Assembly: GCA_018606645.1 (NCBI GenBank)
Contig: JAGVRI010000005.1
Location: 50,629 to 114,628, forward strand
Source of the DNA: Chloroflexota bacterium
GTDB lineage: Bacteria; Chloroflexota; Anaerolineae; JAAYZQ01
Length of the DNA stretch: 64,000 nt
Direction: 5' to 3'
A program made the position numbers and the translations under genes. Positions 2,407-33,079 of this stretch are shown here, piece after piece (position 1 is the stretch's first letter; each line of letters starts with the position of its first letter). The notes beneath the pieces were generated by a model, which ran no database searches, had not been told where the DNA came from, and saw nothing but the letters and a program-made list of their open reading frames with translations.

Positions 2407-2425
2407 GGTCGTTTTTCCCTCCGTC

Positions 2426-7624: not shown

Positions 7625-7645
7625 CGCCGAGCCTCCTGTTCACCT

Positions 7646-8308: not shown

Positions 8309-8466
8309 CGGAACTCGCTTCGCTCCATCCCCAATACAAATGTGAGAACCACACCAGGTTGATGTCGGTGTTAGAGGCCTGGCTTTCCACCACGACCTGG
8401 GAAAGCCAAGCCTCCCCCAGGCGTCCAAGCGATTGACTACCGCCGACGAATCATGGTGCGTACGGC

Positions 8467-9619: not shown

Positions 9620-9982
9620 CTACTCCAGCTCTCGGTCGGAGCCGGGCAAGAACGCCGGCCCGTTCATCACCAGATAGGCCATGTGCCCATCAAACACATA
9701 GGGCACGCTGCGGGGGATGAACACCAGGTCCCCGGCCCTGACCTTGAACGGTGCCCCATCGCCTACCTGGAATTCACCATCCCCCTCGATGATATAGTAC
9801 ACCCGGTCACTCAGGTCACAGACCATCTTTTTGTGATGACCCCAGATTTTGACCCAGGTGACACTGATATCCTGGCTGTGTTGGGCGCGGTTCACGGCCG
9901 TCTTCATCACCAGTGGGTACCCTTCTTCTCGGATTTCCGGAATATCCTCCAGCCGAATCAGCATTTTGTTCTCCTTGACCAA
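9620..9982 (-). CDS. cupin-domain protein
   Basis: 120 aa with a two-motif cupin beta-barrel pattern (VYYIIEGDGEF ... GDLVFIPRSVPY). Confidence 0.55.
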   Translation of the reverse strand: MVKENKMLIRLEDIPEIREEGYPLVMKTAVNRAQHSQDISVTWVKIWGHHKKMVCDLSDRVYYIIEGDGEFQVGDGAPFKVRAGDLVFIPRSVPYVFDGHMAYLVMNGPAFLPGSDRELE

Positions 9983-9987
9983 ACGAA

Positions 9988-10602
9988 TCAGTTCCCTGCC
10001 AGAGGTTCTACTTCCATGATCACATGGTCCATTCGGACTGTCTGTCCCACAGCCGCCCGGATTTTCTTAACAATCCCCTCCCGGGGTGCCCGGATCACAT
10101 TCCGGGTCTTCATCGCTTCCAGGATGGCTACCCCGTCACCCGCTTTGACATTTTGGCCTTCTTGGACCAGGAATTCGACCAGCACCCCGGTCATAGGGCT
10201 GGTCACGGCACCAGCGCCGGCCTCCTCACGGCCTGGAACTCTGGGCCCGCCGAGAGTTGTCGCCGATATGGCCCGATCCTCTGGACGCCGTCGGTCCTCC
10301 CGCCTCAGCCCTTGCGGAATCCGCTCGCCGCTCACCCGGACCTCGTACCGATTCCCCTCGACGATCACCGTGTAGCCGTCTTCCCCAGGCTCCACCAGGA
10401 CCTCGTACGACCTGGGGCCGATCAACAACGAGAACAAGGATTCGCCAATGCGCTCCAGATGGGCGTCCCGTGGCTGATCGTTCACCATCACTCGGCCGTT
10501 TTGCTCGATGCGGATTCGATATTCCTCTCCGGCAAGAGTTGTAACATAGTTCACCGATCTCACGTCTCCTGTCATGTCTCTCACCCCATGGCTGCGGTCC
10601 AC
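9988..10602 (-). CDS. biotin carboxyl carrier protein (biotinyl domain)
   Basis: The C-terminus has the biotinylation motif (GDGVAILEAMKTRNVIRAP). The N-terminus has YRIRIE/YEVRV beta-hairpin repeats typical of small BCCPs. The true start may be the internal ATG at 10575. Confidence 0.8.
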   Translation of the reverse strand: MDRSHGVRDMTGDVRSVNYVTTLAGEEYRIRIEQNGRVMVNDQPRDAHLERIGESLFSLLIGPRSYEVLVEPGEDGYTVIVEGNRYEVRVSGERIPQGLRREDRRRPEDRAISATTLGGPRVPGREEAGAGAVTSPMTGVLVEFLVQEGQNVKAGDGVAILEAMKTRNVIRAPREGIVKKIRAAVGQTVRMDHVIMEVEPLAGN

Positions 10603-10611
10603 TTCTCATCA

Positions 10612-13600
10612 CTAACCGGGGATGATCCCACAGCGTCGTTCAATTCTCTTGGCCTCTCTGAGGCTGTAGAATTCGAGGCGGGCAATTAACTCATCCCGCA
10701 GTTGGGTGGCCGGAATGATCGCCTCAAAGAAGAACTCGCTGGCCATTGCGTAGGGATCGATATTGTCCTCATACTCGTCTTGCTTCGCCTGAATGAACGC
10801 CGGACGCTCCTCGGGCGGCAATTCCATGATCTTGTTATAGTAAATGGCGTTGATGGCTGCGGCTGGCCCCATGAGGGCCGGCTTGGCCGTGGGCAGAGCA
10901 ATGACCGCATCGGGGTTAATGGGAGCGCCAGACATGGCCAGGTATCCGCCTCCATAGGCCTTGCGCACGATGACACAGATGCGGGGCACCGTGGATTCCG
11001 AGACGGCGTAGAGGAATTTGGCGCCGTGGCGGATAATACCCTGTCGCTCCACCTGAGTGCCGATCATAAAGCCGGCAATATCATTCAGGAACAGCAGCGG
11101 GATGTTGAAGGCGTTGCAGATCCAGATAAAACGGGCGGCCTTGTCGGCCGAATCGGGAAAGATGACCCCCGCTTTGATCAACGACTGATTGGCGAGGATG
11201 CCCACCGAACGACCTCCCAGCCGGGCCAACCCGGTGATCATCTCCGGCGCAAACAGCTTCTTGTACTCCCACCAACTGCCTTCGTCAATGATCGCCTCAA
11301 TGAACTCATACATGTCAAACGGGATGCTCTCCCGGCTGGGGACGATCTCTTCGATCGGCCGGCCGGGCGCCGGGTCCCGGGGTTCGACCATCGGCGGCTT
11401 CTCCCGCCAGTTTTGGGGAAAATAGGAGAGGTATTTGAGGGCCGCATCCATCGCTTCCTTGTCATCAGCGACGAGCATGTCCCCCAGCCCGCTGACCTCG
11501 CAGTGCATCCGCGCGCCGCCCATCTCCTCCATCGTCACCTTTTCGCCGATGGCCATTTCGGCCATGCGCGGCGATCCCATATACACCGTGGCATTCTTGT
11601 CCACCATGATGGTCACGTCGCACAGCGCCGGAACATACGCCGATCCAGCGGGGGAGGGACCAAAGAGGATGCAGATCTGAGGGATGCGTCCGGAGAAGAT
11701 GATCTGGTTATAGAAGATATTGCCCCACGCATCCCGTCCTGCGTAGCAGTGGTGCTGGTCGTCAATGCGTGCTCCGGCGGAATCAATGAGATAGAGCAAC
11801 GGGATGCCCAGTTCGTCCGCCTTGCGCTGCATATAGGTCATCTTCTTGTAGCCAATCCGTCCCCAGGTCCCTGCCTTGACCGTCATGTCGTTGGCGATAA
11901 TGGCTACCTTCCGCCCCTCGATGGTGCCCAGACCGACGATCATTGCGTCGGCCGGCAGTCCCTCAGCGTAGCGGGCGAACAGCCCATCCTCTACAAAGGA
12001 GCCAGGATCCAACATGTATTCAATACGGTCCCGCACAAACATCTTGTTCTGTTCCGCGAGTTGTTTGTGGTACTTTTCCGGGCCGCCTTTATAGAGCGTC
12101 TCCATCCGCTGCAGAAGCTCCAGATGCTGAGGCGGTGGATTTTGGGATTGAGTCAGCGGCTTTTTTCTCGGCTCGGGACGCTCCTGGGGTTGGGCGGGCT
12201 GGATCTTTTCCATCCGTTCACCCTTCCTTTCACCGGCGGGGGATGGACCGGCCAGAACTTGTTGATGATGGACCAGCGTGGCAGTGAGAGCTGCGACTTC
12301 TTCCAGTTCTTTGCTTTCTACTCGGCTCAGCACAAAACTATCAAGAAACGAGGTATCATATACCCCTTGGACAAAGGACGGGGTCTCCATCACCTGCTGG
12401 TGGAACGGGATCGAGGTGGGGATGCCGACGATGACATATTCCCGCAACGCCCGACGCATCCGTCGGATGGCCTCCTCACGGCTATCTCCCCAGGCAATCA
12501 GCTTGGCCAGCAACGAGTCATAGTGGGGAGACACTTCGCAGCCCTCGTACAGGCCGCTGTCCACCCGAATTCCCGGACCACCGGGCTGGACCAAGGTCGT
12601 GATCCGGCCACTATGCGGAATGAAATCGTGAAAGGGGTCTTCGGCTGTGATCCGGCATTCGATGGCCCACCCCCGTGGCTGGATATCCGCTTGCTCGTAA
12701 CGCAACGGCTCCCCCGCCGCAATGCGGAGTTGTTCGACGACAATGTCCACCCCGGTCACACATTCTGTCACCGGGTGCTCTACCTGGAGCCGGGCGTTCA
12801 TCTCCAGGAAGTAGAAATTGCCCTCCTGATCCAGCAAGAACTCGACGGTCCCGGCGTTGACATACCCCGCGATCAATGCCGCACGCACCGCAATCTCTCC
12901 CATCCGGCTCCGTAGCTCGCTGTCTACGGTGGGGGAGGGGCATTCCTCGATCAGCTTCTGATGCCGTCGCTGGACCGAGCACTCCCGTTCCCCCAGGTAG
13001 ATGGCGTTGCCATGTCGGTCCACCAGAATCTGGACCTCGACATGATGGGGTTTCTGGATCGCTTTTTCCAGATAGACCCGGTCATCGCCAAAGGCGCTCA
13101 ATGCCTCGCCGCGAGCAGCGCCCAAGGTGCGGAGCAGCTCATCCTGGTTTTGAACCAGGCGCATGCCCCTGCCGCCTCCCCCGGCTGCGGCCTTGATAAA
13201 GAGCGGAAATCCGATACGATCGGCTTCGCTGACCAGTTCCTCATCACTCAGGTCTCGTTCCGTGCCGGGAACAATCGGCACTCCCGCCCGCTGCATGAGC
13301 TGCCGCGCCTTTACCTTGTCCCCCAGAGCGGCCATGGCCTGGGCGGGAGGGCCGATGAACACAATTCCTGCCTCCTCGCAGGCGGCAGCAAATTGGGGAT
13401 TCTCGGCCAGGAACCCATAGCCGGGATGAATGGCCTCCGCCCCGCTCTGGCGGGCGACCTCGATCAGCCGCTCGATGCGCAGATAACTCTCTCGAGCAGG
13501 GGCTGGACCGATATGGTAGCTCTCGTCGGCGTAACGGACGTGGAGCGCCGCCCGATCGGCGTCCGAATAGACCGCGACCGTCTGGACGCCCAACTCCCGG

Positions 13601-13674
13601 CAAGCCCGCATGACGCGGACCGCGATTTCACCCCGATTGGCAATCAGCACTTTTTTGAACATCCGATATCCCAT
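10612..13674 (-). CDS. acyl-CoA carboxylase with biotin carboxylase (ATP-grasp) fused to a PccB/AccD-type carboxyltransferase; no BCCP domain
   Basis: One 1020-aa ORF. Residues 1-450 are a biotin carboxylase (KVLIANRGEIAVRVMRACRELG, ATP-grasp). After a Pro/Gln-rich linker comes a carboxyltransferase (MFVRDRIEYMLDPGSFVE, MGGARMHCEVSGLGD). Confidence 0.85.
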   Translation of the reverse strand: MGYRMFKKVLIANRGEIAVRVMRACRELGVQTVAVYSDADRAALHVRYADESYHIGPAPARESYLRIERLIEVARQSGAEAIHPGYGFLAENPQFAAACEEAGIVFIGPPAQAMAALGDKVKARQLMQRAGVPIVPGTERDLSDEELVSEADRIGFPLFIKAAAGGGGRGMRLVQNQDELLRTLGAARGEALSAFGDDRVYLEKAIQKPHHVEVQILVDRHGNAIYLGERECSVQRRHQKLIEECPSPTVDSELRSRMGEIAVRAALIAGYVNAGTVEFLLDQEGNFYFLEMNARLQVEHPVTECVTGVDIVVEQLRIAAGEPLRYEQADIQPRGWAIECRITAEDPFHDFIPHSGRITTLVQPGGPGIRVDSGLYEGCEVSPHYDSLLAKLIAWGDSREEAIRRMRRALREYVIVGIPTSIPFHQQVMETPSFVQGVYDTSFLDSFVLSRVESKELEEVAALTATLVHHQQVLAGPSPAGERKGERMEKIQPAQPQERPEPRKKPLTQSQNPPPQHLELLQRMETLYKGGPEKYHKQLAEQNKMFVRDRIEYMLDPGSFVEDGLFARYAEGLPADAMIVGLGTIEGRKVAIIANDMTVKAGTWGRIGYKKMTYMQRKADELGIPLLYLIDSAGARIDDQHHCYAGRDAWGNIFYNQIIFSGRIPQICILFGPSPAGSAYVPALCDVTIMVDKNATVYMGSPRMAEMAIGEKVTMEEMGGARMHCEVSGLGDMLVADDKEAMDAALKYLSYFPQNWREKPPMVEPRDPAPGRPIEEIVPSRESIPFDMYEFIEAIIDEGSWWEYKKLFAPEMITGLARLGGRSVGILANQSLIKAGVIFPDSADKAARFIWICNAFNIPLLFLNDIAGFMIGTQVERQGIIRHGAKFLYAVSESTVPRICVIVRKAYGGGYLAMSGAPINPDAVIALPTAKPALMGPAAAINAIYYNKIMELPPEERPAFIQAKQDEYEDNIDPYAMASEFFFEAIIPATQLRDELIARLEFYSLREAKRIERRCGIIPG

Positions 13675-13685
13675 CGTAAAAGAGT

Positions 13686-14012
13686 CTATCCCTCATCAGG
13701 GACAGGAATTTCCATACGCAACAGGGCGGTGGACATGGACTTGCCTGTCTGGTCGAAAAGCAAGGTGCGGGTGGCTCCCCCTCCCAAGGCATTGCGCAAC
13801 ACGATCTCCAGAGCATGGACCTTGGGGAGCGGATAGATCTCCACCGCCCCTTTCACCATATCGCCAAAATGGGCCTTGATCCGTTCGGGCGTCACCTCGC
13901 GGCGGATCAGTTCATACGCCTTCTCATCAAAGGCAAGCAAGCCGATGTTGCACACGTCCCCCTTGTCTCCAGAACGTGCATACGCCAGTTCACGAAGTTG
14001 TTTGGTGGCCAT
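13686..14012 (-). CDS. small AtuA-associated protein (DUF4387-like), probable C-terminal partner of the DUF1446 protein
   Basis: 108 aa with an ARSGDKGD...NIG motif reminiscent of the C-terminal domain of AtuA-family proteins. Homology was recalled from memory, not searched. Confidence 0.45.
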   Translation of the reverse strand: MATKQLRELAYARSGDKGDVCNIGLLAFDEKAYELIRREVTPERIKAHFGDMVKGAVEIYPLPKVHALEIVLRNALGGGATRTLLFDQTGKSMSTALLRMEIPVPDEG

Positions 14013-14024
14013 TGATGTCGCTCC

Positions 14025-14465
14025 TTAATTGGCAGGTCGCTTACTCATCCATAGCTTGTAGATGCACACGACCACCGGTTGGCCGTGTTGATTGACGATC
14101 CGGTAGTCGAATCCGACAACGCCGGTGCCATCCTCCCGCTCTTTCTTTTCCACTGCCTCCATCTCCAGGTGCACCGTATCGCCGATAAAGACAGGCGCGA
14201 TGAACCGCACCCGATCCAGACCGTACAGAGCCAGGACTGTTTCCCGTTTGGCCGGTACCAGCCCGGTGGAGATGGACAGCACCAGCGCACCATGAGCGAT
14301 CCGCCGCCCGAAGGAGGTCTGAGCGGCGTACTCCTGGTCCGTATGGATCGAGTGCCAGTCGCCGCTGAGATAGGCAAAGTTCACCACATCCGCTTCGGTG
14401 ATGGTCCGTCCTTTTGTCACCCACTTCTGGCCGATCTCAATCTCGTCAAAGTATCGGTCTGGCAT
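14025..14465 (-). CDS. MaoC-like (R)-specific enoyl-CoA hydratase / hot-dog dehydratase
   Basis: 146-aa hot-dog fold (NFAYLSGDWHSIHTDQEYA ... RIAHGAL). Confidence 0.8.
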   Translation of the reverse strand: MPDRYFDEIEIGQKWVTKGRTITEADVVNFAYLSGDWHSIHTDQEYAAQTSFGRRIAHGALVLSISTGLVPAKRETVLALYGLDRVRFIAPVFIGDTVHLEMEAVEKKEREDGTGVVGFDYRIVNQHGQPVVVCIYKLWMSKRPAN

Positions 14466-14474
14466 GATTGCCTC

Positions 14475-15257
14475 CTATCCCCAGTTTGGTTTGCGCTTGT
14501 TGAGAAATGCATCCACCCCTTCGGCCACATCATCGCCCAGCATATAGACCACCCGGATGTTGCGCGCGAATTCGAGCGCTTCGTCATAGCCCATATCCGC
14601 CGTGGCGTAAAAGAGCCGCTTGCCCAACGCGATCGCAGCCGGCCCTTTTTCGGCCAGACTGGTTGCCAGTTCCATCGCCTCGTTCGACAGCGCATCGCGG
14701 GGCACCACCCGATTCACCAGACCGATCCGCAAGGCCTCTTCGGCATCGAGGATTCGGCCGGTCAAGGCCATCTCTAACGCCATCCGCTCGCCAACCACAC
14801 GGCGGAGCGCCGGCAAGATGATCATCGGAAAGAGGCCGATCCGGATCTCGGTGGTGCCCAACTTTGCATCATCGGCGGCAATGGCCATGTCACACAGGGC
14901 GACCAGACCGCACCCTCCGGCCAGGGCATACCCCTGCACCGCAGCGATGACCGGCGCGCGCATCGCCGGCACCAGGCGAAACAGCTCGATCCACGGTTCG
15001 GCGGCCTGCCAGTGGTCAAAGGCCGGAAGTTTCAGTTCCTCAGCAAACTCTTTCAGGTCTCCACCGGCTGAAAAATGGTCCCCTGCCCCCGAGATGACCA
15101 CGGCGCGCACCTCAGGGTCGGCATCTACGCCCCGCAGCGTCGAGGTCAGGGCATGGACCATCGCATAGTTCATCGCGTTCCGCTTTTCCGGGTGGCAAAG
15201 GGTCAAGCGTACGACGCGGCCGATCCTTTCCTGAAGGACCAGAGATTCTCCGCTCAT
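14475..15257 (-). CDS. enoyl-CoA hydratase/isomerase (crotonase family)
   Basis: Crotonase motifs (LTLCHPEKRNAM, ISGAGDHFSAGGDLKE, AAVQGYALAGGCGLVALCDMAIA). The start was trimmed to MSGESLV, directly after the upstream gene's stop. Confidence 0.85.
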   Translation of the reverse strand: MSGESLVLQERIGRVVRLTLCHPEKRNAMNYAMVHALTSTLRGVDADPEVRAVVISGAGDHFSAGGDLKEFAEELKLPAFDHWQAAEPWIELFRLVPAMRAPVIAAVQGYALAGGCGLVALCDMAIAADDAKLGTTEIRIGLFPMIILPALRRVVGERMALEMALTGRILDAEEALRIGLVNRVVPRDALSNEAMELATSLAEKGPAAIALGKRLFYATADMGYDEALEFARNIRVVYMLGDDVAEGVDAFLNKRKPNWG

Positions 15258-15259
15258 GA

Positions 15260-16624
15260 TTACACTTCTTCCACCACTACCTTGATCTGGATGGCATCGC
15301 GGGGGATGAGCGTCGGCCACAGAGAGATCACCGGACGCACCGGGAACGGGACGCCGAACGCGGTGCCAATCCCTCCCAAGGTCCATAGGTGGGTGGCCTC
15401 TCGGCGAACCAGGTCGGCCTCCTCAGGAGTGCGGAGCTTGGCGGCGATGCGCAGTCCGACTTCGTTCAGTTCCCCCGTAGGCCGGGGAGCGGTCCGTCCG
15501 TGCAAGGCATTCACGCCGACATAATCAAAGCGGATCTCGATCGGCTCCACTTTGATCCGGTGCTTCAGCCGCATGCGCACAATCTCTTCCGCCCGCTGTG
15601 CTTTTTCCAGCGCGTCGGGCCAGGAGAAGAGAAGGAGCCCCTCGGCGATATAGCCATCCCGATACCCGATGCAGAGCTTCAAGGTATCAGGTCGGGGCTT
15701 CCCCCGAAAGCCTTTCACCCGGACTCGGTTCTCACCCACCTCTTCCACCGTAACGTCACTCAGATCGGCGATGCCGTCCGGCATGTAGTAGTTGTACGGA
15801 TCGAGGACTTCGTACAACAGTTGTTCTTTGACGGTCCACTGATTGACGATCCCGCCGGTATCCGGCGCCTTGGTAATGATCGCCTCCGGGACCTCGTTCA
15901 CCTCGGCAATGGGGAAGCCGATCTTCCAGGCATCCTTCGCCTCGCGCCACTGGTTCGACCCTCCCCCCGTGCAAAAGCAGGCACATTCCAGGAGATGGCC
16001 GATGACGATGCCTCCCCCGATCTTGTCCCAGTAGCCATCTTCAAAGCGCCAGCCAAATTCGTGCATCAACGCCGCCACAAAAGGCGCACCATCGGAGATG
16101 CGGCCGGCGATGATATACTTGGCCCCGGATTGCAGCGCCTCCAGAATGCCGTCCGACCCGATGTAGGCGTTGGCTGCCACAATGTCCTGGCGGATGCGAT
16201 CGAGCCCTTCTTCCCCTGTATCCATGTTGACAAAGGGCACCCCCTCAGCCGCTAACCGGTCCAACTGGTCGAACACGTCATCGCCGCTGATGGTCGCCAC
16301 CTTCAGCCCCTTGAACCCCATCTTGCGGGCCAATTCAATGACCTGACGGCCTCCTTCCTCCGGATTGGCTCCCCCGGCATTGGTGATCATGGTGATGCCC
16401 TTCTCATAGGTAATGGGCAACAACGCTTCTGTCCAGGGGATCAGGTCGGGGATATAGCCATGTTTGGGGTTCTTGCTCTTGTAGCGCTGCAGAATGGCCA
16501 GTGTCAACTCGGCCAGGTGGTCCAGGCCAAGATAGTCAATGTCCCCTTTGGCCGCCACATCGATGGCCGGATCGAGCATGTCGCCCCAGTAGGCCGAACC
16601 ATTTCCTAAACGTACGGTCTTCAT
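15260..16624 (-). CDS. AtuA-like acyclic terpene utilisation family protein (DUF1446)
   Basis: 454 aa. The N-terminus (RLGNGSAYWGD ... DIDYLGLDHLAELTL) matches the DUF1446/AtuA family. Confidence 0.7.
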   Translation of the reverse strand: MKTVRLGNGSAYWGDMLDPAIDVAAKGDIDYLGLDHLAELTLAILQRYKSKNPKHGYIPDLIPWTEALLPITYEKGITMITNAGGANPEEGGRQVIELARKMGFKGLKVATISGDDVFDQLDRLAAEGVPFVNMDTGEEGLDRIRQDIVAANAYIGSDGILEALQSGAKYIIAGRISDGAPFVAALMHEFGWRFEDGYWDKIGGGIVIGHLLECACFCTGGGSNQWREAKDAWKIGFPIAEVNEVPEAIITKAPDTGGIVNQWTVKEQLLYEVLDPYNYYMPDGIADLSDVTVEEVGENRVRVKGFRGKPRPDTLKLCIGYRDGYIAEGLLLFSWPDALEKAQRAEEIVRMRLKHRIKVEPIEIRFDYVGVNALHGRTAPRPTGELNEVGLRIAAKLRTPEEADLVRREATHLWTLGGIGTAFGVPFPVRPVISLWPTLIPRDAIQIKVVVEEV

Positions 16625-16666
16625 CCACCTCTCCTCAGATACGATGATCTAGGTCCTTTGCGTGTA

Positions 16667-17860
16667 TCAAGCGTCCACATGTACGATGGTTGCTTCCCCT
16701 TCGCCGATGCCGCCGCAGATGGCCACCAATCCCCATCCCCCGCCTCGCTTGTGCAAGGCATAGATTAGAGTCATAACCAGGCGCGCTGCGGTAGCCCCGG
16801 TCGGGTGACCGATGGCAATGGCGCCGCCGTTGACGTTGGTCTTGTCCCGAATGGCGGCCACCTTGGCCGGGTCCCCATCGCCCAGGATATAGGTAGACAC
16901 CAGCGGCATAGCAGCAAAGGCTTCATTGATCTCGATCAGGTCCATCTGATCAATGGTCATGCCGACCTGTTTCAAGGCCTTCTGGGCGGCGACCGCCGGA
17001 ATGCTGGCTAGCTTGTCCGGGTGTCCCGCCGCCATCGCCCAGGTTTTGATCGTGGCCAGCGGTTTGATGCCCCGTCGTTCGGCTTCGCCCCGGGTGGCGA
17101 GGACAAGCGCCGCAGCGCCGGTGTTCAGCCCCGGCGCATTGCCGGCCGTCACGGTCGGGCTCCCATACACCGTGGGAAGCTTGGCCAGCTTTTCCAGGGA
17201 GGTATCGGGGCGCACGCTTTCATCTTTGTCAAAAAGGATCGGCGGACCCTTGCGCTGCGGGACCTCGACCGGCATGATCTCGGACTGGAAAAAGCCCGCT
17301 TCCTGAGCAGCCAGACAGCGTTGATGGCTGCGCAGCGCCCAGAGGTCCTGCTCCTCCCGGCCAATGTTGTAGGCCACGGCCTCTTCACCGGCCTGCACGG
17401 CTCGGGCTTTGCCGGTGTACGGACAACTGATCACCAGTTGATCTTTGAGCACAATATCGCCCAATCGGTTCCCCCACCGCGCCGCGTGCAGGAAATAGGG
17501 CACCAGGCTCATGTTTTCGGTGCCGCCCGCGACGACCACTTGAGCGTCGCCAAGACGCAGAGACCGGGAAACCACGTTGATGGCAGTCAAGGATGAGCAA
17601 CATGCTCGATCGACGGTAAAGGCCAACGCCGTATCCGGCAGGCCGGCGCGCAGCGCCACCTGTCGGGCAATGGAGCGGTCAGAACCGGGCAAATTGACCC
17701 CCATTGCCAGCTCATCCACCTCTTCTGGCCGAATGTTGGCGCGGCGCAGGGCCTCCGCCACCACCATACCGCCCAGCTCTGGAAGCGTAAAATCTTTGAG
17801 GGTCCCCCCAAAGGCGCCAAAGGGAGTGCGAACCGCAGACAATACCACCACCTCGTTCAT
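16667..17860 (-). CDS. acetyl-CoA acetyltransferase (thiolase II)
   Basis: Thiolase motifs (VVLSAVRTPFG, VDRACCSSL, NVNGGAIAIGHPTGATAARL, CGGIGEG). Confidence 0.85.
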   Translation of the reverse strand: MNEVVVLSAVRTPFGAFGGTLKDFTLPELGGMVVAEALRRANIRPEEVDELAMGVNLPGSDRSIARQVALRAGLPDTALAFTVDRACCSSLTAINVVSRSLRLGDAQVVVAGGTENMSLVPYFLHAARWGNRLGDIVLKDQLVISCPYTGKARAVQAGEEAVAYNIGREEQDLWALRSHQRCLAAQEAGFFQSEIMPVEVPQRKGPPILFDKDESVRPDTSLEKLAKLPTVYGSPTVTAGNAPGLNTGAAALVLATRGEAERRGIKPLATIKTWAMAAGHPDKLASIPAVAAQKALKQVGMTIDQMDLIEINEAFAAMPLVSTYILGDGDPAKVAAIRDKTNVNGGAIAIGHPTGATAARLVMTLIYALHKRGGGWGLVAICGGIGEGEATIVHVDA

Positions 17861-17905
17861 ACGATCCTCCTATATCTCAGTCGCGTAGCATTGGCCCAGT
17901 CCAGC

Positions 17906-19138
17906 TTAGAGCACCCCAGCTTGCCTGAGGTCCTGGATCTGGGCCGGCGTGTAGCCCAATAGTTCCTGCAGAATTTCCTCCGTATGCTCCCCTAGACGTG
18001 GGGCAGGCCGGGCAATGGCCGTCATCTGGTTGGACATTTTGATCGGCGGACCCACCAGTTCCACCCGTCCGGCCACCGGATCATCCACTGCGACGAACGC
18101 CCGGCGCGCCCGGGCATGGGGGCATTCAAAAATCTCTTTTGCATTCTGAACTGGCCCCACGGGTAGCCCATGCTTCAGTAACCTGTCCACAACCTCCTGG
18201 GTCGTGTGGCTGGCAAACCAGCCCTCGACGATCGGCTTCAGAAACCCCTCCCGCATGTTCCTGGCCCGAGCTGGACCGGAATCGGTCTCACCCTCGATCC
18301 CGATGAGATCGGGACGTTCGATGGCTTCGCAGAAACGAGCCCAATCTCGTTCGGTGGGCACGACGATCGCGATCCAGCCATCCTGCGTCTGGAATGGACC
18401 CCACGGGGCGATGAACGGCTCCACCCCTCGCTCCAGGACCCGGCCGGTCAGAGAATAGGCAGTAAGCGATCGTTCAGCCAGTGAGAGGATGGCATCGTAC
18501 ATCGATACATCGATATATTGTCCCTTGCCGGTCTTGGTGCGCTCATACAGGGCAAACATGATGCCCTGCACCGCCAGTGCCCCTGAATAGAGGTCGCCCA
18601 GGGCAATCCCCAGCCAGGTGGGAGGACCACCGGCCTGGCCACAAGTGTACATCAACCCGCCCATGGCCTGGGCCACAATGTCATACGAGGGCCGGTCGGC
18701 ATAGATCCCTCTTAACTCTGGCATCGTGCCAAAACCACTGATGGAAACGTAGATCAACCCTGGGTTCAGGGGGGCCAGATCGCGATACCCTAACCCCAGT
18801 TTATCGGTCGCGCCGGGGCGCAGGTTATCCACGACCACATCAGAATTCCGGACCAGTTCTTTGTAAATCTCCTTGCCCTTGGGATCCTCCAGATTCAGGG
18901 TGATGCTGCGCTTGTTGCGGTTGAAGCGCATGAAATAGCCGCTGACCCGCTCCCCTGCTTCATTCTTGATCATGGGAGCCCCCTCGCGGGCCGAATCGCC
19001 GGATTTCGGCCTCTCCACTTTGATCACATCGGCCCCGCGGTCGGCCAGAGTCATGGTGCAATACGGACCTGCGACCTGTACTTCGTTGGCAATCACACGA
19101 ATACCAGCTAGAGGACCTTTCTGCTCGGTGAATGTCAT
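17906..19138 (-). CDS. CoA-transferase family III (CaiB/BaiF/Frc-like)
   Basis: N-terminus GIRVIANEVQVAGPYCTMTLADRGADVIKVERP plus the conserved Asp region. 410 aa. Confidence 0.85.
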   Translation of the reverse strand: MTFTEQKGPLAGIRVIANEVQVAGPYCTMTLADRGADVIKVERPKSGDSAREGAPMIKNEAGERVSGYFMRFNRNKRSITLNLEDPKGKEIYKELVRNSDVVVDNLRPGATDKLGLGYRDLAPLNPGLIYVSISGFGTMPELRGIYADRPSYDIVAQAMGGLMYTCGQAGGPPTWLGIALGDLYSGALAVQGIMFALYERTKTGKGQYIDVSMYDAILSLAERSLTAYSLTGRVLERGVEPFIAPWGPFQTQDGWIAIVVPTERDWARFCEAIERPDLIGIEGETDSGPARARNMREGFLKPIVEGWFASHTTQEVVDRLLKHGLPVGPVQNAKEIFECPHARARRAFVAVDDPVAGRVELVGPPIKMSNQMTAIARPAPRLGEHTEEILQELLGYTPAQIQDLRQAGVL

Positions 19139-19198
19139 CTTTCCTCCTCATCGAGTGATGTGTTTACAAATCGATCTGATTCCAAACTGTCCTTTTCC

Positions 19199-19960
19199 CT
19201 ACATCGCCGTCAGACCGCCGTCCACCGGCAGCGTAACTCCGGTGATGTAGGAGGACTCATCGGAAGCCAGGAATAGCGCCGCACGGGCGATCTCCTCGGG
19301 CTCTGCGACCCGGCCCATCGGAATGCGTGCCACCAATTCCTGCATCTTTTTCTCTGGATCGGGCGCGTGGTTGATAAAGCCCAGAAACATCGGGGTGCGC
19401 ACTTCGCTGGGCGCGATCCCATTCACCCGAATGTTGTATCGGGCATAATCGATCGCCATCTGCCGCGTCAGGGCCACCACGCCCCCCTTGGCTGCACTAT
19501 AAGGCGCCTGATTGGGAGATGCGACCAGCCCGCACATCGAGGCCATGTTGATCACTGACCCGCCCCCGCCGTTGATCATATGTGGAATGGCGTACTTGGA
19601 CAGCAAAAAGACACCTTTTAAATCAATTTCCATCGTCTTATCCCATACCTCTTCGGTGGCGTCCACCACCGAGGCAGGGATGGTAACCGCTGCATTGTTG
19701 ACCAGGATATCGATCCGGCCATATGCGTCAACGGTTGTCTGCACCAGCCGCTGCATATCCTCTGCGTTGGAAACATCGCTTTCGACAAAGAGGGCTTCCC
19801 CGCCATGCTGTTGGATCATGCGGACTGTCTCCTGCCCTCCCTCCGGAGCATAGTCAGCCACGACCACTCGGGCGCCCTCCTGGGCGAAGAGTAGGGCCGT
19901 GGCCCGGCCAATGCCGCTTCCTCCTCCGGTGACAATGGCTACCTTTCCTGCCAGTCTCAT
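19199..19960 (-). CDS. SDR-family oxidoreductase
   Basis: TGGGSGIGRA and NNAA motifs with a YSAAK catalytic motif. Confidence 0.85.
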   Translation of the reverse strand: MRLAGKVAIVTGGGSGIGRATALLFAQEGARVVVADYAPEGGQETVRMIQQHGGEALFVESDVSNAEDMQRLVQTTVDAYGRIDILVNNAAVTIPASVVDATEEVWDKTMEIDLKGVFLLSKYAIPHMINGGGGSVINMASMCGLVASPNQAPYSAAKGGVVALTRQMAIDYARYNIRVNGIAPSEVRTPMFLGFINHAPDPEKKMQELVARIPMGRVAEPEEIARAALFLASDESSYITGVTLPVDGGLTAM

Positions 19961-19975
19961 CTTAACCTCTTCCGG

Positions 19976-20746
19976 TCACGAGCTCCACGGTGAAGCCAGG
20001 ATCACTCCTCCGTCCACGTAGAGGATGACGCCGGTGATATAGTCGGCCTCGTCCGAGGCCAAAAAGACCACCGCATGGCCGATATCCCGAGGACTGCCAA
20101 AGCGTCGTAAGGGAATGCCGGCCCGGATCTTTTCGGCGGTTACAGGATCGGAAAGACATCCTTTGCTGCTGAGGCCGTTTTTGATCACCCCGGGCCCAAT
20201 GGCGTTCACATTGATGGAATACGGGGCCAGGTCCAGGGCCAGGGCTTTGGTGAGCATCAGAATACCCCCCTTGGAGGCGGCATAGTGAGGTTCGCCGGGG
20301 GCAGGCATTTCAGACATAATCGAGCCGATGTTGATGATCTTGCCCCCGGTTCCCCACTGGGCCATGTGCCGCGCCACCGCCTGGGAACAGAGCCACGCCC
20401 CTTTGAGATTGATGTCGAGGGTTTTGTCCCAGTCGGCCTCGCTGATCTCAAATACGGGGCGGATCAACTCGACGCCGGCATTGTTGACCAGGATATCGAT
20501 CTGCCCGGCCCACGCCAGCGTCCGCTCTACCATCTCGGTCACCGAGTCGGGATTGGACACGTCGGTGCGAACGACTAACGCCCGGCGGCCCAACTTCTGC
20601 ACTTCCTCGGCTACTGTCTGAGCCCCTTTCTCATCCAGGTCCGCCAGCACCACAGCCGCGCCTTCCTCGGCGAGACGAGTCACAATGCCCTTGCCGATGC
20701 CTCCTGCCGCGCCGGTGACGATGGCTACTTTGTCTTTGAGTCTCAT
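19976..20746 (-). CDS. SDR-family oxidoreductase
   Basis: TGAAGGIGKG and NNAG motifs with a YAASK catalytic motif. Confidence 0.85.
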   Translation of the reverse strand: MRLKDKVAIVTGAAGGIGKGIVTRLAEEGAAVVLADLDEKGAQTVAEEVQKLGRRALVVRTDVSNPDSVTEMVERTLAWAGQIDILVNNAGVELIRPVFEISEADWDKTLDINLKGAWLCSQAVARHMAQWGTGGKIINIGSIMSEMPAPGEPHYAASKGGILMLTKALALDLAPYSINVNAIGPGVIKNGLSSKGCLSDPVTAEKIRAGIPLRRFGSPRDIGHAVVFLASDEADYITGVILYVDGGVILASPWSS

Positions 20747-20759
20747 GAAATCCCTTTCT

Positions 20760-21533
20760 TCACTCCAGAGTGAATCCCCCGTCCACGACCAGGTTCACCC
20801 CGGTGATCATGGACGCTTCTTCGGAGGCCAGGAACAGAACAGCATGGGCAATGTCCTCAGGCTGGCACATCCTGCCCAGCGGAATCCGTTCGGCAAACGC
20901 TTGACGCTTCTCAAAAGCGGCCCGGTCCTGCTGAAGATGGGCCAGACGATGGCGCATCGGCTTTTCCATGGGCCCGGGGCAGACGCTGTTCACCCGGATA
21001 TTGTATCGGGCATAGTCTCGCGCCATTTGCTGCGTCAGCAAAACCAATCCTCCCTTGGACGCCCCATAAGCAGCCTCCTGGGCCATCGGTCTCAACCCGG
21101 CGATCGAGCCGGTGTTGATGATGACTCCGCCGCCGTTCTTGATCATCTCCGGGATCACATATTTTGAACAGAGAAACACACCTTTCAGATTGACATCCAG
21201 GATCTGATCCCAGTCCTCTACCTCGGTGGCGACGACGTGGGTCGCCTGAGGCAGGTCAATGCCGGCATTGTTGTGCAGGACGTCGATCCGACCATACCGT
21301 TCCACCGCCAGGCGCACCATAGCCTGCACCTCGGTCGGCTGGATAACGTTTGTCTGGATGAACAGCGCCTCGCCGCCTTCCTGGTGGATGAGTCCGGCCG
21401 TCTCCTGCCCACTCTCAGCCTCATAGTCCACGACTACTACCCTGGCCCCCTCCCGGGCCAAGAGCAGAGCCGTCGCCCGGCCGATGCCCATGCCGGCGCC
21501 GGTGATTAACGCCACCTTCCCGGTAAATCTCAC
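20760..21533 (-). CDS. SDR-family oxidoreductase
   Basis: TGAGMGIGRA and NNAG motifs with a YGASK catalytic motif. Third of three tandem paralogs. Confidence 0.85.
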   Translation of the reverse strand: MRFTGKVALITGAGMGIGRATALLLAREGARVVVVDYEAESGQETAGLIHQEGGEALFIQTNVIQPTEVQAMVRLAVERYGRIDVLHNNAGIDLPQATHVVATEVEDWDQILDVNLKGVFLCSKYVIPEMIKNGGGVIINTGSIAGLRPMAQEAAYGASKGGLVLLTQQMARDYARYNIRVNSVCPGPMEKPMRHRLAHLQQDRAAFEKRQAFAERIPLGRMCQPEDIAHAVLFLASEEASMITGVNLVVDGGFTLE

Positions 21534-21596
21534 CGGAATGCCTCCCGATCCTTCATCGGAAGCGAGTCCGCTTTCCCTCTCGTCTCGACGGAAAGG

Positions 21597-23552
21597 CTAG
21601 AGCTTGAGGGCCACCGCTGCCGCGTCATGAACCGCCTTCCGATAATCGCCGGGCGCCTGGCAATCGCCGATCAGGTAGACATCGCCCCGCCTCTCCTTCA
21701 GGGCCAGGCCCAGGCTGCTGTTCGGGGTCACGCCGACGGCAAGCACCACCGTGTCAAACCCATCAAACACATCTTCCTGCGCGTATCGCCTAACCCGGAG
21801 ACTGAGTTTACCATCCTGAGGCTCGATGGCTGTCACCAGCGTTGAAGTCAGGTACCGAAAATCCTTCTTGGCCAATTTGTCCAACAAGGCCAGCTCGGCG
21901 TCGTGGCTGATGTCCAGGAGGATGTCGTGCAACATCTCGAAGACCAACACCTTCTTGCCTTCCTGCTGCAGGATAAATTCAGCAGTCTCGATCCCCATCG
22001 AGCTTCCCCCAATGATAGCCACCGACTGTCCTACCTCCACCTTGCCCAGCAAGACATCATCGGCCGTCACCACACTGGGATGATCCAGGCCCCTGATGCT
22101 GGCCGGCAGAAGCGGCTTGCCGCCAGTCGCGACAATGACGACATCCGGGTTGCGCGCTTCAACTTCCTCCACCGTAAGCTCCCGTCCCAATTCCACCTGG
22201 ACCCCCAGCCGTTTCATCTCGTTCTCATAATAGGTCAGCCAGCGCTTCTGGTTCTCCTTGTCAGGTGGGATCATCGCCAGGTGGATTTTGCCCCCAATCC
22301 GATCGTTCTTGTCCACCAGGGTCACCGAATGACCTCGAATGGCTGCCAGGCGTGCCGCCTCCAGGCCGGCCGGGCCGGCGCCAATGACCAACACCTTCTT
22401 TGGATCGTCGGTAGGCCATAACCCCTGTTCGAACTCTTTTTCCTTGCCCACGGCGGCGTTGACCGTGCACCGCATGTCTTCGGGCCACACCGCAGCGCTT
22501 TTGGAACAGCGCAGACAGGGTCGGATTTCCTCCAACCGTCCTTCGCGCGCCTTGTTGGGCATGTCCGGATCGGCGAACAAGGGCCGGCCGATAGCGACCA
22601 GGTCTACCTTGCCCCGTGCCAGCACCTTTTCCGCAAAGATCGGGTCCTCAATCGCTCCCACGGCAATGACCGGTACATCAGGCCCGACCGCCTCCTTGAT
22701 CCCTTCGGCCAGGTAGACGTTGTAGCCTTGGGGAACGGCGGCGGGCAGAAAGCTATAGTGCCCACTGGGTGCCATCCCCGCCGAGACATGAATAACCTCA
22801 GCCCCGGCCCCAACCAGGATCTTGGCGATCTCCTTGGCATCTTCCAGGGTGTTTCCGCCATTCACATAGTCGTGTCCATTGATCCGAACCTGAAGGAGCA
22901 ACCCGTCGCCGACTACTTCCCGAATGCGGGCCAGGATCTCGCGGACGATGCGCGTTCGCCCCCATACATCACCCCCGTACTCGTCGGTGCGTTTGTTCTG
23001 GTACGGGGACAGAAACCCGGAGAGCAGGTATCCGTGAGCGCAATGGATTTCGACGCCGTCAAAGCCAGCTTCTTGAGCCCGTCGGGCGGCCTGAGCATAC
23101 TCTTCGACCAGCGCATGGATCTCTTCGACGGTGATCGCCCGGGTGGGGTCTTTGCGCACCGGATCCGGGATGCCAGAGGGGCTCAGGGTGGGCGGGCCGG
23201 CGATCATGCCGTAGCGCTGCCGGCCGGCATGATAGAGCTGGAGCGATGTCCGCACGTCATACGAATGGATAGCCTCCACCAACTTGCGGAATCCTGGTAT
23301 ATACTTGTCATCGGTGATCCGGGTCTGGTTCGGGTGGGAGCGACCACTGGGCTCGCTGACCACGGTCGCGTTCACCACAATATATCCAACTCCACCTCGA
23401 GCCCGGGCTTCGTAATAGTCGATCAACCGTTGGTGGACAAAGCCCTCAGAGCCGGGGATATAAATGGCCATCGGGGGCATGACCATCCGATTCTTCACTT
23501 CAAAGGTGCGGAATCGAAACGGCTCAAACAGATATTTGAACTCGGCGTTCAT
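21597..23552 (-). CDS. 2,4-dienoyl-CoA reductase-like flavoprotein (OYE domain plus FAD/NAD(P) domain)
   Basis: 651 aa. OYE signature (FDGVEIHCAHGYLLSGFLSPYQNKRTDEYGG) and C-terminal Rossmann motifs (VLVIGAGPAGLEAAR). Paralog of the 4138-6105 gene. Confidence 0.85.
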   Translation of the reverse strand: MNAEFKYLFEPFRFRTFEVKNRMVMPPMAIYIPGSEGFVHQRLIDYYEARARGGVGYIVVNATVVSEPSGRSHPNQTRITDDKYIPGFRKLVEAIHSYDVRTSLQLYHAGRQRYGMIAGPPTLSPSGIPDPVRKDPTRAITVEEIHALVEEYAQAARRAQEAGFDGVEIHCAHGYLLSGFLSPYQNKRTDEYGGDVWGRTRIVREILARIREVVGDGLLLQVRINGHDYVNGGNTLEDAKEIAKILVGAGAEVIHVSAGMAPSGHYSFLPAAVPQGYNVYLAEGIKEAVGPDVPVIAVGAIEDPIFAEKVLARGKVDLVAIGRPLFADPDMPNKAREGRLEEIRPCLRCSKSAAVWPEDMRCTVNAAVGKEKEFEQGLWPTDDPKKVLVIGAGPAGLEAARLAAIRGHSVTLVDKNDRIGGKIHLAMIPPDKENQKRWLTYYENEMKRLGVQVELGRELTVEEVEARNPDVVIVATGGKPLLPASIRGLDHPSVVTADDVLLGKVEVGQSVAIIGGSSMGIETAEFILQQEGKKVLVFEMLHDILLDISHDAELALLDKLAKKDFRYLTSTLVTAIEPQDGKLSLRVRRYAQEDVFDGFDTVVLAVGVTPNSSLGLALKERRGDVYLIGDCQAPGDYRKAVHDAAAVALKL

Positions 23553-23576: not shown

Positions 23577-24350
23577 TTAATGTTTGAGTATGGCCGACAA
23601 AAACTGTCGCGTTCTTGGCTCCTGGGGATGGGTCAAGATCTGATCGCACGGCCCTTCTTCAATGATTTGACCTTCACACAGAAAGACGATCCGGGAACCG
23701 ACCTCGCGGGCAAAGCCCATCTCGTGGGTGACCACGATCATCGTCATCCCTTCTTCTGCCAGCCGTTTCATCTCAGCCAGGATACCGCCGATCAACTCCG
23801 GGTCTAATGCTGAAGTGACCTCGTCAAACAACATCAATTTGGGTTCCATCACCAGGGAACGGGCAATAGCCACCCGTTGCTTCTGACCACCGGAAAGGGT
23901 ATCTGGATAGGCGTGAAGTTTGTCCCCCAGTCCAACCCGCTCCAACTGGGCCTTGGCTCTCTGCTCTGCCTCTGCCTTGGGGATCTTGAGCGCCTGTTCT
24001 AATCCCAGCGTACAGTTCTGGAGGGCCGTAAGATGAGGGAATAGGTTGAAATGTTGGAAGACCATCCCGATGTGGGTGCGCAGATAGCGCAGGTCTTCCT
24101 GCCCACGGCCCCTCAAACGGTCTTGCCACGAGTGTTTGACGGCATAGTTTTTGCCCAGGAAGATCACCTCGCCGGAATCGGGCCACTCCAACAGGTTGAC
24201 GCACCGGAGCAAGGTGGACTTGCCCTGGCCGCTGGGGCCGATGATGACCACCACTTCCTGGCGATGCACGGTGAGGTTGATGCCTTTCAGGACCTGATGA
24301 TCGCCAAACGATTTCGTAATGTTGACCAGTTTCAGAATCTCTTCAGCCAT
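23577..24350 (-). CDS. polar amino acid ABC transporter ATP-binding protein
   Basis: Walker A (GPSGQGKST), ABC signature (LSGGQKQRVAIARSL) and Walker B (LMLFDEVTSALD). Confidence 0.9.
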   Translation of the reverse strand: MAEEILKLVNITKSFGDHQVLKGINLTVHRQEVVVIIGPSGQGKSTLLRCVNLLEWPDSGEVIFLGKNYAVKHSWQDRLRGRGQEDLRYLRTHIGMVFQHFNLFPHLTALQNCTLGLEQALKIPKAEAEQRAKAQLERVGLGDKLHAYPDTLSGGQKQRVAIARSLVMEPKLMLFDEVTSALDPELIGGILAEMKRLAEEGMTMIVVTHEMGFAREVGSRIVFLCEGQIIEEGPCDQILTHPQEPRTRQFLSAILKH

Positions 24351-24355
24351 AGTTT

Positions 24356-25030: not shown

Positions 25031-25044
25031 ATGCCCGTCCTTCC

Positions 25045-25713: not shown

Positions 25714-25841
25714 GTATGGACCCCATCCTGCGGACCATGGGCCTGGACATCGAGTCCGAGGGAGCGAACTGAGGAAATCATTGGATCCCGCGTCCAGCCC
25801 GCTCCCTCAGATCCCCCAGACCTGCTGTCTCAAGAATCCCG

Positions 25842-26813: not shown

Positions 26814-26938
26814 GACTGGTAGATTTCAAAGCCTTTGCCATTTCCCACAACCGACTTCTCGATCACAGCCTCACGGACATAGACCACCCCCTCTCTGAAT
26901 GAGTATACCGGTCTTATCCGACATCTATGGGCCCTTCG

Positions 26939-33050: not shown

Positions 33051-33079
33051 TTGAGACTTTGACCAAGCCATGCTACAAT
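33051..33079 (+). promoter_or_regulatory. sigma-70-type promoter (TTGAGA -17 nt- TACAAT) upstream of the methyltransferase gene
   Basis: TTGAGA at 33051-33056 and TACAAT at 33074-33079 with a 17-nt spacer, about 70 nt upstream of the ATG at 33151. Confidence 0.5.

Follow-up and report, generated by a model that had tools for sequence, protein, structure and literature searches.

Proteins of the AtuA family were left without an assigned function for some twenty years, and lyase activity was attributed to members of the family very recently, with the release of the CmlAB structure in 2025 and with data on ThnQS that are cited as unpublished. ThnQ and ThnS constitute the lyase by which a tertiary alcohol is opened during the anaerobic degradation of naphthalene (the unpublished data are cited in a review), and CmlAB splits citramalate in a direct reaction that yields pyruvate and acetate (bioRxiv 10.64898/2026.01.16.699985); the cmlA gene is the DUF1446 open reading frame (ORF) that was flagged by the Berg laboratory in 2015. 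Here we describe a 64,000-nucleotide stretch of a Chloroflexota contig (JAGVRI010000005.1, positions 50,629 to 114,628; hereafter the window), which encodes both subunits of a predicted AtuA-type lyase within a gene run at 9620-23552. The core of this locus is a multi-phylum, uncharacterized acyl-CoA pathway module, in which the conserved lyase is coupled to a carboxyltransferase (CT) of a third lineage and to a remodelled B12-dependent mutase. The locus places the AtuA-type lyase in a third, widespread genomic context, the others being (i) Atu-like clusters with genes for an acyl-CoA dehydrogenase (ACAD), enoyl-CoA hydratase (ECH), biotin carboxyl carrier protein (BCCP), biotin carboxylase (BC) and CT, and (ii) the carboxylase-free thn operon.

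The region 9620-23552 contains 13 ORFs (a preliminary description of this DNA had counted fourteen genes). They are co-directional and minimally spaced, as had been stated, all being located on the minus strand and separated by intergenic gaps of 2-63 nt, and each of the domain assignments made earlier, including the three dehydrogenase paralogues, was confirmed by Pfam:

21597-23552, minus strand: OYE1, a flavoprotein with Old Yellow Enzyme (OYE) and FAD/NAD domains, FadH/BaiCD-like (Oxidored_FMN and Pyr_redox_2)
20760-21533, 19976-20746 and 19199-19960, minus strand: three short-chain dehydrogenase/reductase (SDR) paralogues in tandem (adh_short_C2, E about 1e-68 to 1e-73)
17906-19138, minus strand: family-III CoA-transferase, dicarboxylate type (PF02515, E 7e-119)
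16667-17860, minus strand: thiolase 1, short-chain (acetoacetyl-CoA-type), adjoining AtuA (Thiolase_N/C)
15260-16624, minus strand: predicted AtuA-type lyase, large subunit, 454 aa (PF07287, E 1.4e-135, residues 4-450 matched)
14475-15257, minus strand: crotonase-family ECH, 260 aa (ECH_1, E 5.7e-60)
14025-14465, minus strand: MaoC (R)-specific hydratase, single hot-dog (PF01575, E 3e-31)
13686-14012, minus strand: predicted AtuA-type lyase, small subunit, 108 aa, AtuA_ferredoxin (PF23544, E 1.3e-28)
10612-13674, minus strand: BC-CT fusion, 1020 aa (Pfam BC domains and Carboxyl_trans)
9988-10602, minus strand: separate BCCP, 204 aa (Biotin_lipoyl at residues 133-197; EAMKT motif)
9620-9982, minus strand: small cupin (weak Cupin_2/3 matches)

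The three tandem SDRs share 40-54% identity with one another, and MaoC has a weak mesaconyl-CoA hydratase match besides PF01575. The apparent 127-nt overlap between the AtuA and crotonase genes is an artefact of ORF calling, since the true start of the crotonase is the ATG at 15257, located 2 nt beyond the AtuA stop codon. When the 14-kb run was compared with plasmids by megablast, fragments of only 40-56 bp were found, which gave no indication of a plasmid origin or of a close annotated relative.

The 454-aa and 108-aa proteins are the predicted large and small subunits of a heterodimeric AtuA-type C-C lyase. Matches to PF07287 and PF14330 had been proposed as a check of the two pieces: the larger protein does match PF07287, and the smaller one matches PF23544, while PF14330 was not present in the copy of Pfam used. 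The AlphaFold2 model of the large subunit (pLDDT 91.5) had a sole significant fold match in the PDB, 9evf_A (E 7.6e-26, TM 0.76), and that of the small subunit (pLDDT 88.6) likewise had one, 9evf_B (E 3.5e-5, TM 0.69). Chains A and B of 9evf are the citramalate lyase CmlAB, and a PDB sequence search with the large subunit also returned an entry named "Acyclic terpene utilization AtuA family protein" and "Citramalate lyase, subunit A (cmlA)". With ThnQ of Desulfobacterium N47 and NaphS2 the large subunit shares 52-54% identity, and the small subunit is 57-58% identical to the thn small subunit (ThnS). The genes that we labelled in the N47 and NaphS2 loci are arranged as published, namely thnI, J, L, M, O, Q, S, T, U, V (table in PMC12016498; thnK, thnN and thnP were without a seed or were not recovered in this labelling), and among the loci compared the thn gene order is reproduced in L069. 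By analogy, the three AtuA-type lyases may share one chemistry, in which a tertiary carbinol loses an arm that bears a carboxylate and is left as a ketone. The structure 9evf was deposited as an ADP-pyruvate complex; speculatively, its ADP site might match the CoA nucleotide site of acyl-CoA-cleaving relatives.

For the comparison, 89 loci were gathered and their genes were labelled by local blastp. A core of ten genes, in the order mutase, CoA-transferase, thiolase, AtuA, ECH, MaoC, small subunit, CT, BC and BCCP, recurs (type I loci) in the Chloroflexota (Anaerolineae, Caldilineaceae), Armatimonadota, Actinomycetota (Nitriliruptorales, Euzebyaceae and Intrasporangium calvum, L066), Bacillota and Atribacterota, the loci gathered from the last two phyla being without one or more of the carboxylase genes. 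In type I loci the thiolase and the hydratases are kept beside AtuA, with ECH next to it and MaoC a member of the core; the adjacency of the mutase and CoA-transferase genes is conserved, and the small-subunit gene lies directly upstream of the CT gene in most cases. Orthologues of thiolase 1 occupying the same position in other phyla are 60-82% identical to it. The cupin is also retained, at 68-79% identity, in L003 (an Anaerolineae metagenome-assembled genome, an 86% identical relative), L010 and L015. What is observed here comprises the genes present, the families to which they belong, the fold matches and the cross-phylum conservation of the module, and a literature search covering DUF1446/DUF4387, AtuA with carboxylase, mutase, CoA-transferase or thiolase, and ThnQ returned no description of such a module.

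Only three of the 33 type I loci contain an ACAD gene, and tblastn with an ACAD seed detected none within the 64 kb. The flavoenzymes are variable and non-homologous (OYE-FAD, luciferase-like and PNPOx-like proteins), which suggests that one redox step is performed by non-homologous enzymes in different lineages. PNPOx-like or luciferase-like oxidoreductases of the flavin/F420 type were seen beside the module in loci without OYE genes (L001, L009, L043), and in L003, L012 and L013 a gene of this kind is located between MaoC and the small subunit. Five loci of Dormibacterota (L043, L049, L050, L056, L061) have a minimal set composed of small subunit, CT and AtuA together with a divergent aminotransferase, and contain no mutase, CoA-transferase or thiolase gene within 10 kb.

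The preliminary description regarded the splitting of AtuA into two pieces as special. However, the best 120 homologues of the large subunit all carry PF07287 only (about 454 aa), and the best 120 homologues of the small subunit are all stand-alone proteins of 103-115 aa (named "AtuA-related protein" by NCBI), so that the split form is the normal state of this enzyme. An exact look-up returned no record of the window's large subunit and found the small subunit solely on short Logan contigs. Of the 51 non-type-I loci holding both genes, 48 have them side by side, as do about nine type I loci. In 15 type I loci, all from Chloroflexota or Armatimonadota, the two genes are parted by ECH and MaoC (in three of these by one more gene), in a few loci by ECH alone, and in five Dormibacterota loci by the CT gene. 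The separation by two genes pointed out earlier is therefore real, but it is the order typical of these lineages and not unusual.

The carboxylase was also assigned to a lineage of its own. Its CT half scored 351 bits against the beta subunit of propionyl-CoA carboxylase (PCC; 1vrg), 328 against 12S transcarboxylase, 280 against the beta subunit of 3-methylcrotonyl-CoA carboxylase (MCC) and 220 against that of geranyl-CoA carboxylase (GCC). It is about 36% identical to each of a Bacillus-type PCC beta, a PCC-like CT and the MCC-type CT of L088; the last of these, a true MCC-type enzyme, scored 538 versus 246 bits. Identity to CTs of the same module in other phyla is 55-87%, versus 33-38% to all other CTs encoded next to AtuA. 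Judged by sequence, the window CT is a separate third lineage beside the PCC- and MCC-type enzymes. BC and CT are encoded by separate genes in the type I loci examined, and are fused only in the closest relatives of the window. In the Pseudomonas AtuF/LiuD alpha subunit, BC is fused to BCCP. Membership of the Atu/Liu group, as proposed in the preliminary description, is contradicted by a CT that is not of the MCC/GCC type, by the fusion of BC to CT instead of BCCP, and by the lack of an ACAD gene in the 64 kb. The genes for AtuA and the small subunit co-localize with three CT lineages (MCC-type in Actinomycetota, PCC-like in Syntrophales, and that of the window), and the small-subunit gene abuts the CT gene, which argues that the carboxylase would supply the carboxylate arm needed by the lyase.

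The mutase of the core is encoded in the window downstream of the 13-gene run:

2426-4099, minus strand: acyl-CoA mutase large subunit (PF01642, E 2e-192)

The best solved relative of this protein is the 2-hydroxyisobutyryl-CoA mutase HcmA (495 bits), and methylmalonyl-CoA mutases (MCMs) scored 386-416 bits. The window enzyme keeps Tyr89, Arg207 and His244 of MCM (in GQYSGF, ISRGTYI and SGYHIR), and for this reason its substrate is predicted to bear a carboxylate. Identification as a 2-hydroxyisobutyryl-CoA mutase was rejected, since HcmA has Ile and Gln in place of the Tyr and Arg at positions 89 and 207; in addition, the position of HcmA Asp117 is occupied by Ala in the alignment.

All 18 type I mutases have MG[QLM]Y for RQY, [FL]A[YF]T for HxQT and ATSS for HTNS, and in all of them G or S replaces Trp334. 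These substitutions (R87G, H328F/L, Q330Y/F, W334G/S, H364A, N366S) are conserved over five phyla, the loci concerned including L001, L007, L009, L031, L051 and L053; the window copy reads MGQY, LAYT and ATSS. HxQT and HTNS are kept in the MCM of P. shermanii (MutB), human MCM, HcmA and the split MCM of Brevibacillus (encoded in an island with bkd, epimerase and PCC beta genes), which is 51% identical to the window mutase. The two MCMs and the Brevibacillus enzyme also have RQY, for which HcmA has RQI. This mutase subfamily is predicted to have, most likely, a new substrate specificity; for ethylmalonyl-CoA mutase, no signature residues were found in the literature. Neither a methylmalonyl-CoA epimerase nor a B12-binding subunit was found in the window, and in L031 (Bacillota) a 138-aa B12-binding ORF is located between the orthologous mutase and the CoA-transferase. 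The gene had previously been taken for an MCM, in line with a propionyl-CoA end-product; such an end-product is unproven, because the mutase belongs to the core of the module and its active site is remodelled.

The remaining core enzymes and the neighbouring genes provide clues to the substrate. The best NCBIfam match of the CoA-transferase was succinyl-CoA:mesaconate CoA-transferase (338 bits, below the cutoff), and its PDB matches were formyl-CoA transferase (255 bits) and succinate-hydroxymethylglutarate CoA-transferase (239 bits); an Asp is aligned with the conserved Asp of the two best-matching transferases. The score against the mesaconyl-CoA isomerase model was only 88 bits. The possibility that this protein is an epimerase of the alpha-methylacyl-CoA racemase type, working for the mutase, was rejected, as racemases gave only 95 bits and the transferase Asp is retained. 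Thiolase 1 was best matched by acetyl-CoA C-acetyltransferase (NCBIfam, 418 bits). The crotonase scored 149 bits on the model of gamma-carboxygeranoyl-CoA hydratase (AtuE; cutoff 426), with other models scoring higher. Matches of the SDRs include cyclohexanecarboxylate dehydrogenases, and the OYE proteins resemble BaiCD/aryl-CoA reductase types.

Upstream of the run, the window contains an uptake system and an aminotransferase:

23577-28099, minus strand: polar amino-acid ATP-binding cassette (ABC) transporter (ATPase, two permeases, SBP_bac_3) and class I aminotransferase (26939-28099) (Pfam)

The aminotransferase is 52-78% identical to counterparts that are adjacent in L003, L013-L015 and the Dormibacterota loci. 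Genes found beside the core in type I loci encode (i) E1/E2 of a 2-oxoacid dehydrogenase (in aerobes) or a 2-oxoacid:ferredoxin oxidoreductase (in anaerobes), (ii) SBP_bac_3, SBP_bac_5 and LivJ-like (Peripla_BP_6) binding proteins and an M24 peptidase, and (iii) class I aminotransferases, proline-racemase and OCD proteins and BioY. These functions in transamination, 2-oxoacid oxidation and amino-acid or peptide uptake point to amino acids or small organic acids, rather than terpenes, as the substrate. To our knowledge, leucine is the sole proteinogenic amino acid whose catabolism meets a tertiary carbon, and our best guess is for this reason a leucine/isovalerate-like C5-C6 skeleton. An HpcH gene of Armatimonadota was considered as a malyl-/citramalyl-CoA lyase, and this was rejected, the protein being nearer to HpaI/GarL-type pyruvate aldolases with all scores below the cutoff.

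We assign a probability of roughly 40% to the reading that the locus encodes a catabolic acyl-CoA pathway built around the AtuA-type lyase, which bypasses a carbon that blocks beta-oxidation. The general logic put forward earlier, i.e. addition of a carboxyl arm, hydration, cleavage at a non-oxidizable carbon and thiolysis, survives as the best reading, with ThnQS and CmlAB as precedents; for this scheme we infer in which order the steps occur, the regiochemistry of carboxylation, what substrate is used and what the mutase does, and our confidence in the mechanism is moderate as to the lyase step and low as to the substrate and the function of the mutase. The pathway might proceed as follows: (i) a short branched acid or amino-acid-derived acyl-CoA would originate from compounds imported by the flanking ABC systems and transaminated, (ii) the variable flavoenzymes and the SDRs would bring it to the enoyl-CoA level, (iii) the ATP- and biotin-dependent carboxylase (BC-CT plus BCCP) would add a free carboxylate arm, (iv) ECH and/or MaoC would hydrate the product to a tertiary 3-hydroxyacyl-CoA of the 3-hydroxy-3-alkylglutaryl-CoA type, 3-hydroxy-3-methylglutaryl-CoA (HMG-CoA) being the simplest candidate, (v) the lyase would cut the C-C bond beside the carbinol, releasing the carboxylate arm as acetate and leaving a 3-oxoacyl-CoA, (vi) the adjoining short-chain thiolase would cleave the latter, (vii) the family-III CoA-transferase would activate or recycle a (di)carboxylic acid with succinyl-CoA-type donors, and (viii) the B12 mutase would rearrange a carboxyl-bearing acyl-CoA other than ordinary methylmalonyl-CoA.

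Several observations weigh against this bypass pathway. The CT is not of the MCC/GCC type and scores slightly nearer to the alpha-carboxylating PCC/Mmd enzymes; the enoyl-CoA-forming step has no assigned enzyme, since ACADs are lacking in the window and in all but three of the type I loci; and the mutase and MaoC are core genes for which the proposed scheme, the leucine route included, has no need. Of its precedents, ThnQS is known from unpublished results cited in a review, and CmlAB acts on a free acid and is only 19-20% identical.

A first alternative, which we consider unlikely, is an ethylmalonyl-CoA-like or new C4-to-C3 route, in which the carboxylase and mutase would act consecutively on a non-standard short acyl-CoA. 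The options include conversion of butyryl-CoA via ethylmalonyl-CoA to methylsuccinyl-CoA, or of crotonyl-/3-hydroxybutyryl-CoA via glutaconyl-/3-hydroxyglutaryl-CoA to citramalyl-CoA. The CoA-transferase would then move or remove CoA, the hydratases would interconvert mesaconyl and citramalyl species, and the AtuA lyase would act in the manner of CmlAB to give pyruvate plus acetate or acetyl-CoA, with the net effect that acetyl-CoA units are assimilated into pyruvate or a C5-dicarboxylate is catabolized. Each of seven core functions would be used once, and the few dehydrogenases required fit a core free of ACADs. The conserved mutase-CoA-transferase adjacency is consistent with such a route, as is a mutase that keeps the carboxylate-binding Tyr/Arg/His in a remodelled pocket and has a 2-hydroxyisobutyryl-CoA mutase as its best solved relative. 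The mesaconate-type match of the CoA-transferase, the weak mesaconyl-CoA hydratase match of MaoC and the fact that the sole solved AtuA-family enzyme is a citramalate lyase point in the same direction, and neighbouring pyruvate dehydrogenase-like E1/E2, ferredoxin oxidoreductase or HpaI-type aldolase genes would suit pyruvate as a product. However, AtuA is far nearer to the CoA-ester lyase ThnQ (52%) than to CmlA (19%), and the thiolase always lies beside AtuA, as in thn, where the thiolase takes the lyase product. The adjacency of the small-subunit and CT genes ties the carboxylase to the lyase and not to the mutase, in the Dormibacterota loci, which do have small subunit, CT and AtuA, no mutase gene occurs within 10 kb, and there is no known example of any of the reactions proposed for the mutase or the carboxylase.

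Somewhat more doubtful is the view that the locus is a mosaic serving no single pathway, in which a ThnQS-like bypass of a branched or alicyclic dicarboxylic acid (CoA-transferase, hydratases, lyase and thiolase) would stand beside a PCC/MCM pair that disposes of propionyl-CoA and regenerates succinyl-CoA for the CoA-transferase. The thn operon does function without a carboxylase, the CT scores highest against PCC/Mmd, the MCM Tyr/Arg/His triad is kept in the mutase, and the branched-chain 2-oxoacid dehydrogenase (BCKDH), split MCM and PCC beta occur together in Bacillus-type islands; the cyclohexanecarboxylate dehydrogenase matches of the SDRs and the BaiCD/aryl-CoA reductase likeness of the OYE proteins also speak for this view. 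Against this, the mutase has lost RQY, HxQT and HTNS, all of which a genuine split MCM, 51% identical to it, retains; an epimerase for methylmalonyl-CoA is missing, and the identity of the CT to a genuine PCC beta is no more than 36%. Moreover, the ten genes travel together over five phyla with co-varying identities.

We regard as improbable an undescribed central-carbon pathway, in which two new specificities, those of the carboxylase and the mutase, would feed the lyase and a C4 acyl-CoA plus CO2 would be converted to pyruvate and acetate or acetyl-CoA; the substrate of the mutase would be a carboxylated acyl-CoA with a hydroxy or alkyl substituent, with conversion of 3-hydroxyglutaryl-CoA to citramalyl-CoA, or of an ethylmalonyl-type compound, as examples. 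Such a pathway would offer Chloroflexota, Armatimonadota, Actinomycetota, Bacillota and Atribacterota another option besides the glyoxylate and ethylmalonyl-CoA routes. Degradation of acyclic terpenes (citronellol/geraniol) or of phytanate by an Atu-type pathway, the substrate favoured in the preliminary description, is very improbable in spite of the enzyme families shared with atuABCEFG (AtuA, SDRs, CT, hydratase, BC), given that geranyl-CoA carboxylase gives the CT its lowest score (220 bits), the 149 bits of the hydratase fall far short of the 426-bit cutoff of the AtuE model, the window contains neither an AtuD-type ACAD nor an acyl-CoA synthetase, the thiolase is short-chain, the neighbours are aminotransferases, amino-acid/peptide transporters and 2-oxoacid oxidoreductases, and genuine Atu-like clusters (L085-L089, with MCC-type CT, ACAD and AMP-ligase) look different.

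The gene cluster extends from the cupin gene to the left end of the window:

6962-9366, minus strand: second amino-acid ABC transporter set, inside the cluster (Pfam)
6173-6925, minus strand: SDR4 (Pfam)
4138-6105, minus strand: OYE2 flavoprotein (Pfam, OYE and FAD/NAD domains)
1246-2448, minus strand: thiolase 2 (Pfam)
590-1249, minus strand: BioY biotin transporter (Pfam)
1-577, minus strand: third OYE paralogue, N-terminus only, leaving the window (translation)

L003 has the same gene order, with the cupin gene followed directly by SDR, OYE and mutase genes and without the ABC transporter. SDR4, OYE2, the mutase, thiolase 2 and BioY therefore belong to the cluster, and the transporter at 6962-9366, which is missing from that position in L003, is read as an insertion. 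The second thiolase, the mutase and bioY had been noted before, and all three were confirmed by Pfam. BioY recurs beside the module in L015, L054, L059, L066 and L073. Of the two OYE flavoproteins reported earlier, both are present, OYE2 being located outside 9620-23552, and a third copy, which begins right after BioY, runs from 577 to the window edge; it is 44-46% identical to OYE1 and OYE2, so that the flavoprotein is triplicated. OYE2 has a complete four-Cys 4Fe-4S motif, CxxCxxxCx11C (CISCNKGC...C). In OYE1 (residues about 346-370, CLRCSKSA...C) the third Cys of this motif is missing, and its cluster may for this reason be lost or differently bound.

As a whole, the minus-strand run begins near 32674 and reaches the left edge of the window, and the plus-strand genes from 33151 are housekeeping genes. 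About 290 nt upstream of the first gene of this 32-kb run we found a perfect 12/12 sigma-70 consensus (32966-32994, minus strand: TTGACA, 17-nt spacer, TG of an extended −10, TATAAT), and a divergent 10/12 sigma-70-like partner (33051-33079, plus strand) faces a methyltransferase gene. An Rfam scan of the window revealed no cobalamin riboswitch and no other Rfam family, and a terminator scan gave nothing beyond chance. A 155-aa ORF with a partial glutaredoxin domain at residues 2-46 (29251-29718, minus strand) is located between two LivJ-like binding-protein genes, which have no adjoining permease genes. The segment 46000-53300 has a G+C content of 0.65 (versus about 0.59), with an AT skew of -0.26 at 46-48 kb, and encodes polysaccharide-synthesis proteins and glycosyltransferases, among them a 992-aa GT2 protein. 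This segment might be an island that was acquired separately. Two ORFs of 345 and 321 aa (47582-48619 and 62632-63597, both minus strand) had no Pfam match at E <=1e-6, and the former overlaps plus-strand ORFs and may not be a gene.

If the leucine or branched-acid route holds true, the module would close a gap in the metabolism reconstructed for abundant, uncultured members of the Chloroflexota and Armatimonadota and would provide an acetate-forming alternative to HMG-CoA lyase. If a C2/C4-to-C3 route does, the module would represent a new anaplerotic pathway. Two enzymes besides the lyase look like new specificities, namely the CT, equidistant from PCC and MCC, and the mutase with its remodelled pocket, and under either reading they are concrete candidates for new B12 and biotin chemistry.

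Comparison with known systems shows partial correspondence in each case. With the Pseudomonas Atu/Liu pathways the locus shares a general logic (carboxylation, hydration, lyase, thiolysis) and the families AtuA, SDR, CT, BC and crotonase; in contrast to them it has a CT of another lineage, BC fused to CT, a separate BCCP and no ACAD, a CoA-transferase replaces the synthetase, the B12 mutase and MaoC are extra core genes, and both taxa and neighbours differ. The ethylmalonyl-CoA pathway and the 3-hydroxypropionate bi-cycle likewise employ a mutase for carboxylated acyl-CoA, a MaoC-type hydratase, a family-III CoA-transferase and C-C lyase chemistry on C5 acids, whereas the window is without crotonyl-CoA carboxylase/reductase, methylsuccinyl-CoA dehydrogenase and a CitE-type lyase.

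In the Brevibacillus laterosporus island (L093), a 2-oxoacid dehydrogenase is followed by a split mutase large subunit (51% identical) and a CT, an arrangement similar to that of the outer genes in the loci of Armatimonadota and Caldilineae. However, it has an epimerase gene where the module has CoA-transferase, thiolase, AtuA, ECH, MaoC and small subunit, its mutase keeps all of the MCM motifs, and its CT is only 36% identical to that of the window.

CmlAB of Raoultella planticola (PDB 9erq/9evf) differs in acting on a free acid, in an identity of only 19-20%, and in its location within an enterobacterial glutamate-fermentation cluster, with neither a carboxylase nor a thiolase. It is nonetheless the family's only solved structure, it was matched by both window proteins, and its chemistry, the loss of acetate from a tertiary beta-hydroxy acid, is that predicted for the window enzyme. 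The thn operon of N47 and NaphS2 has two ACADs, no carboxylase and no mutase, its subunit genes are adjacent, and its substrate is an alicyclic dicarboxylyl-CoA in strict anaerobes, but in both cases the lyase is encoded by two separate genes, accompanied by those for MaoC, crotonase, CoA-transferase and thiolase, and the purpose, predicted for the window, is cleavage at a tertiary hydroxylated carbon.

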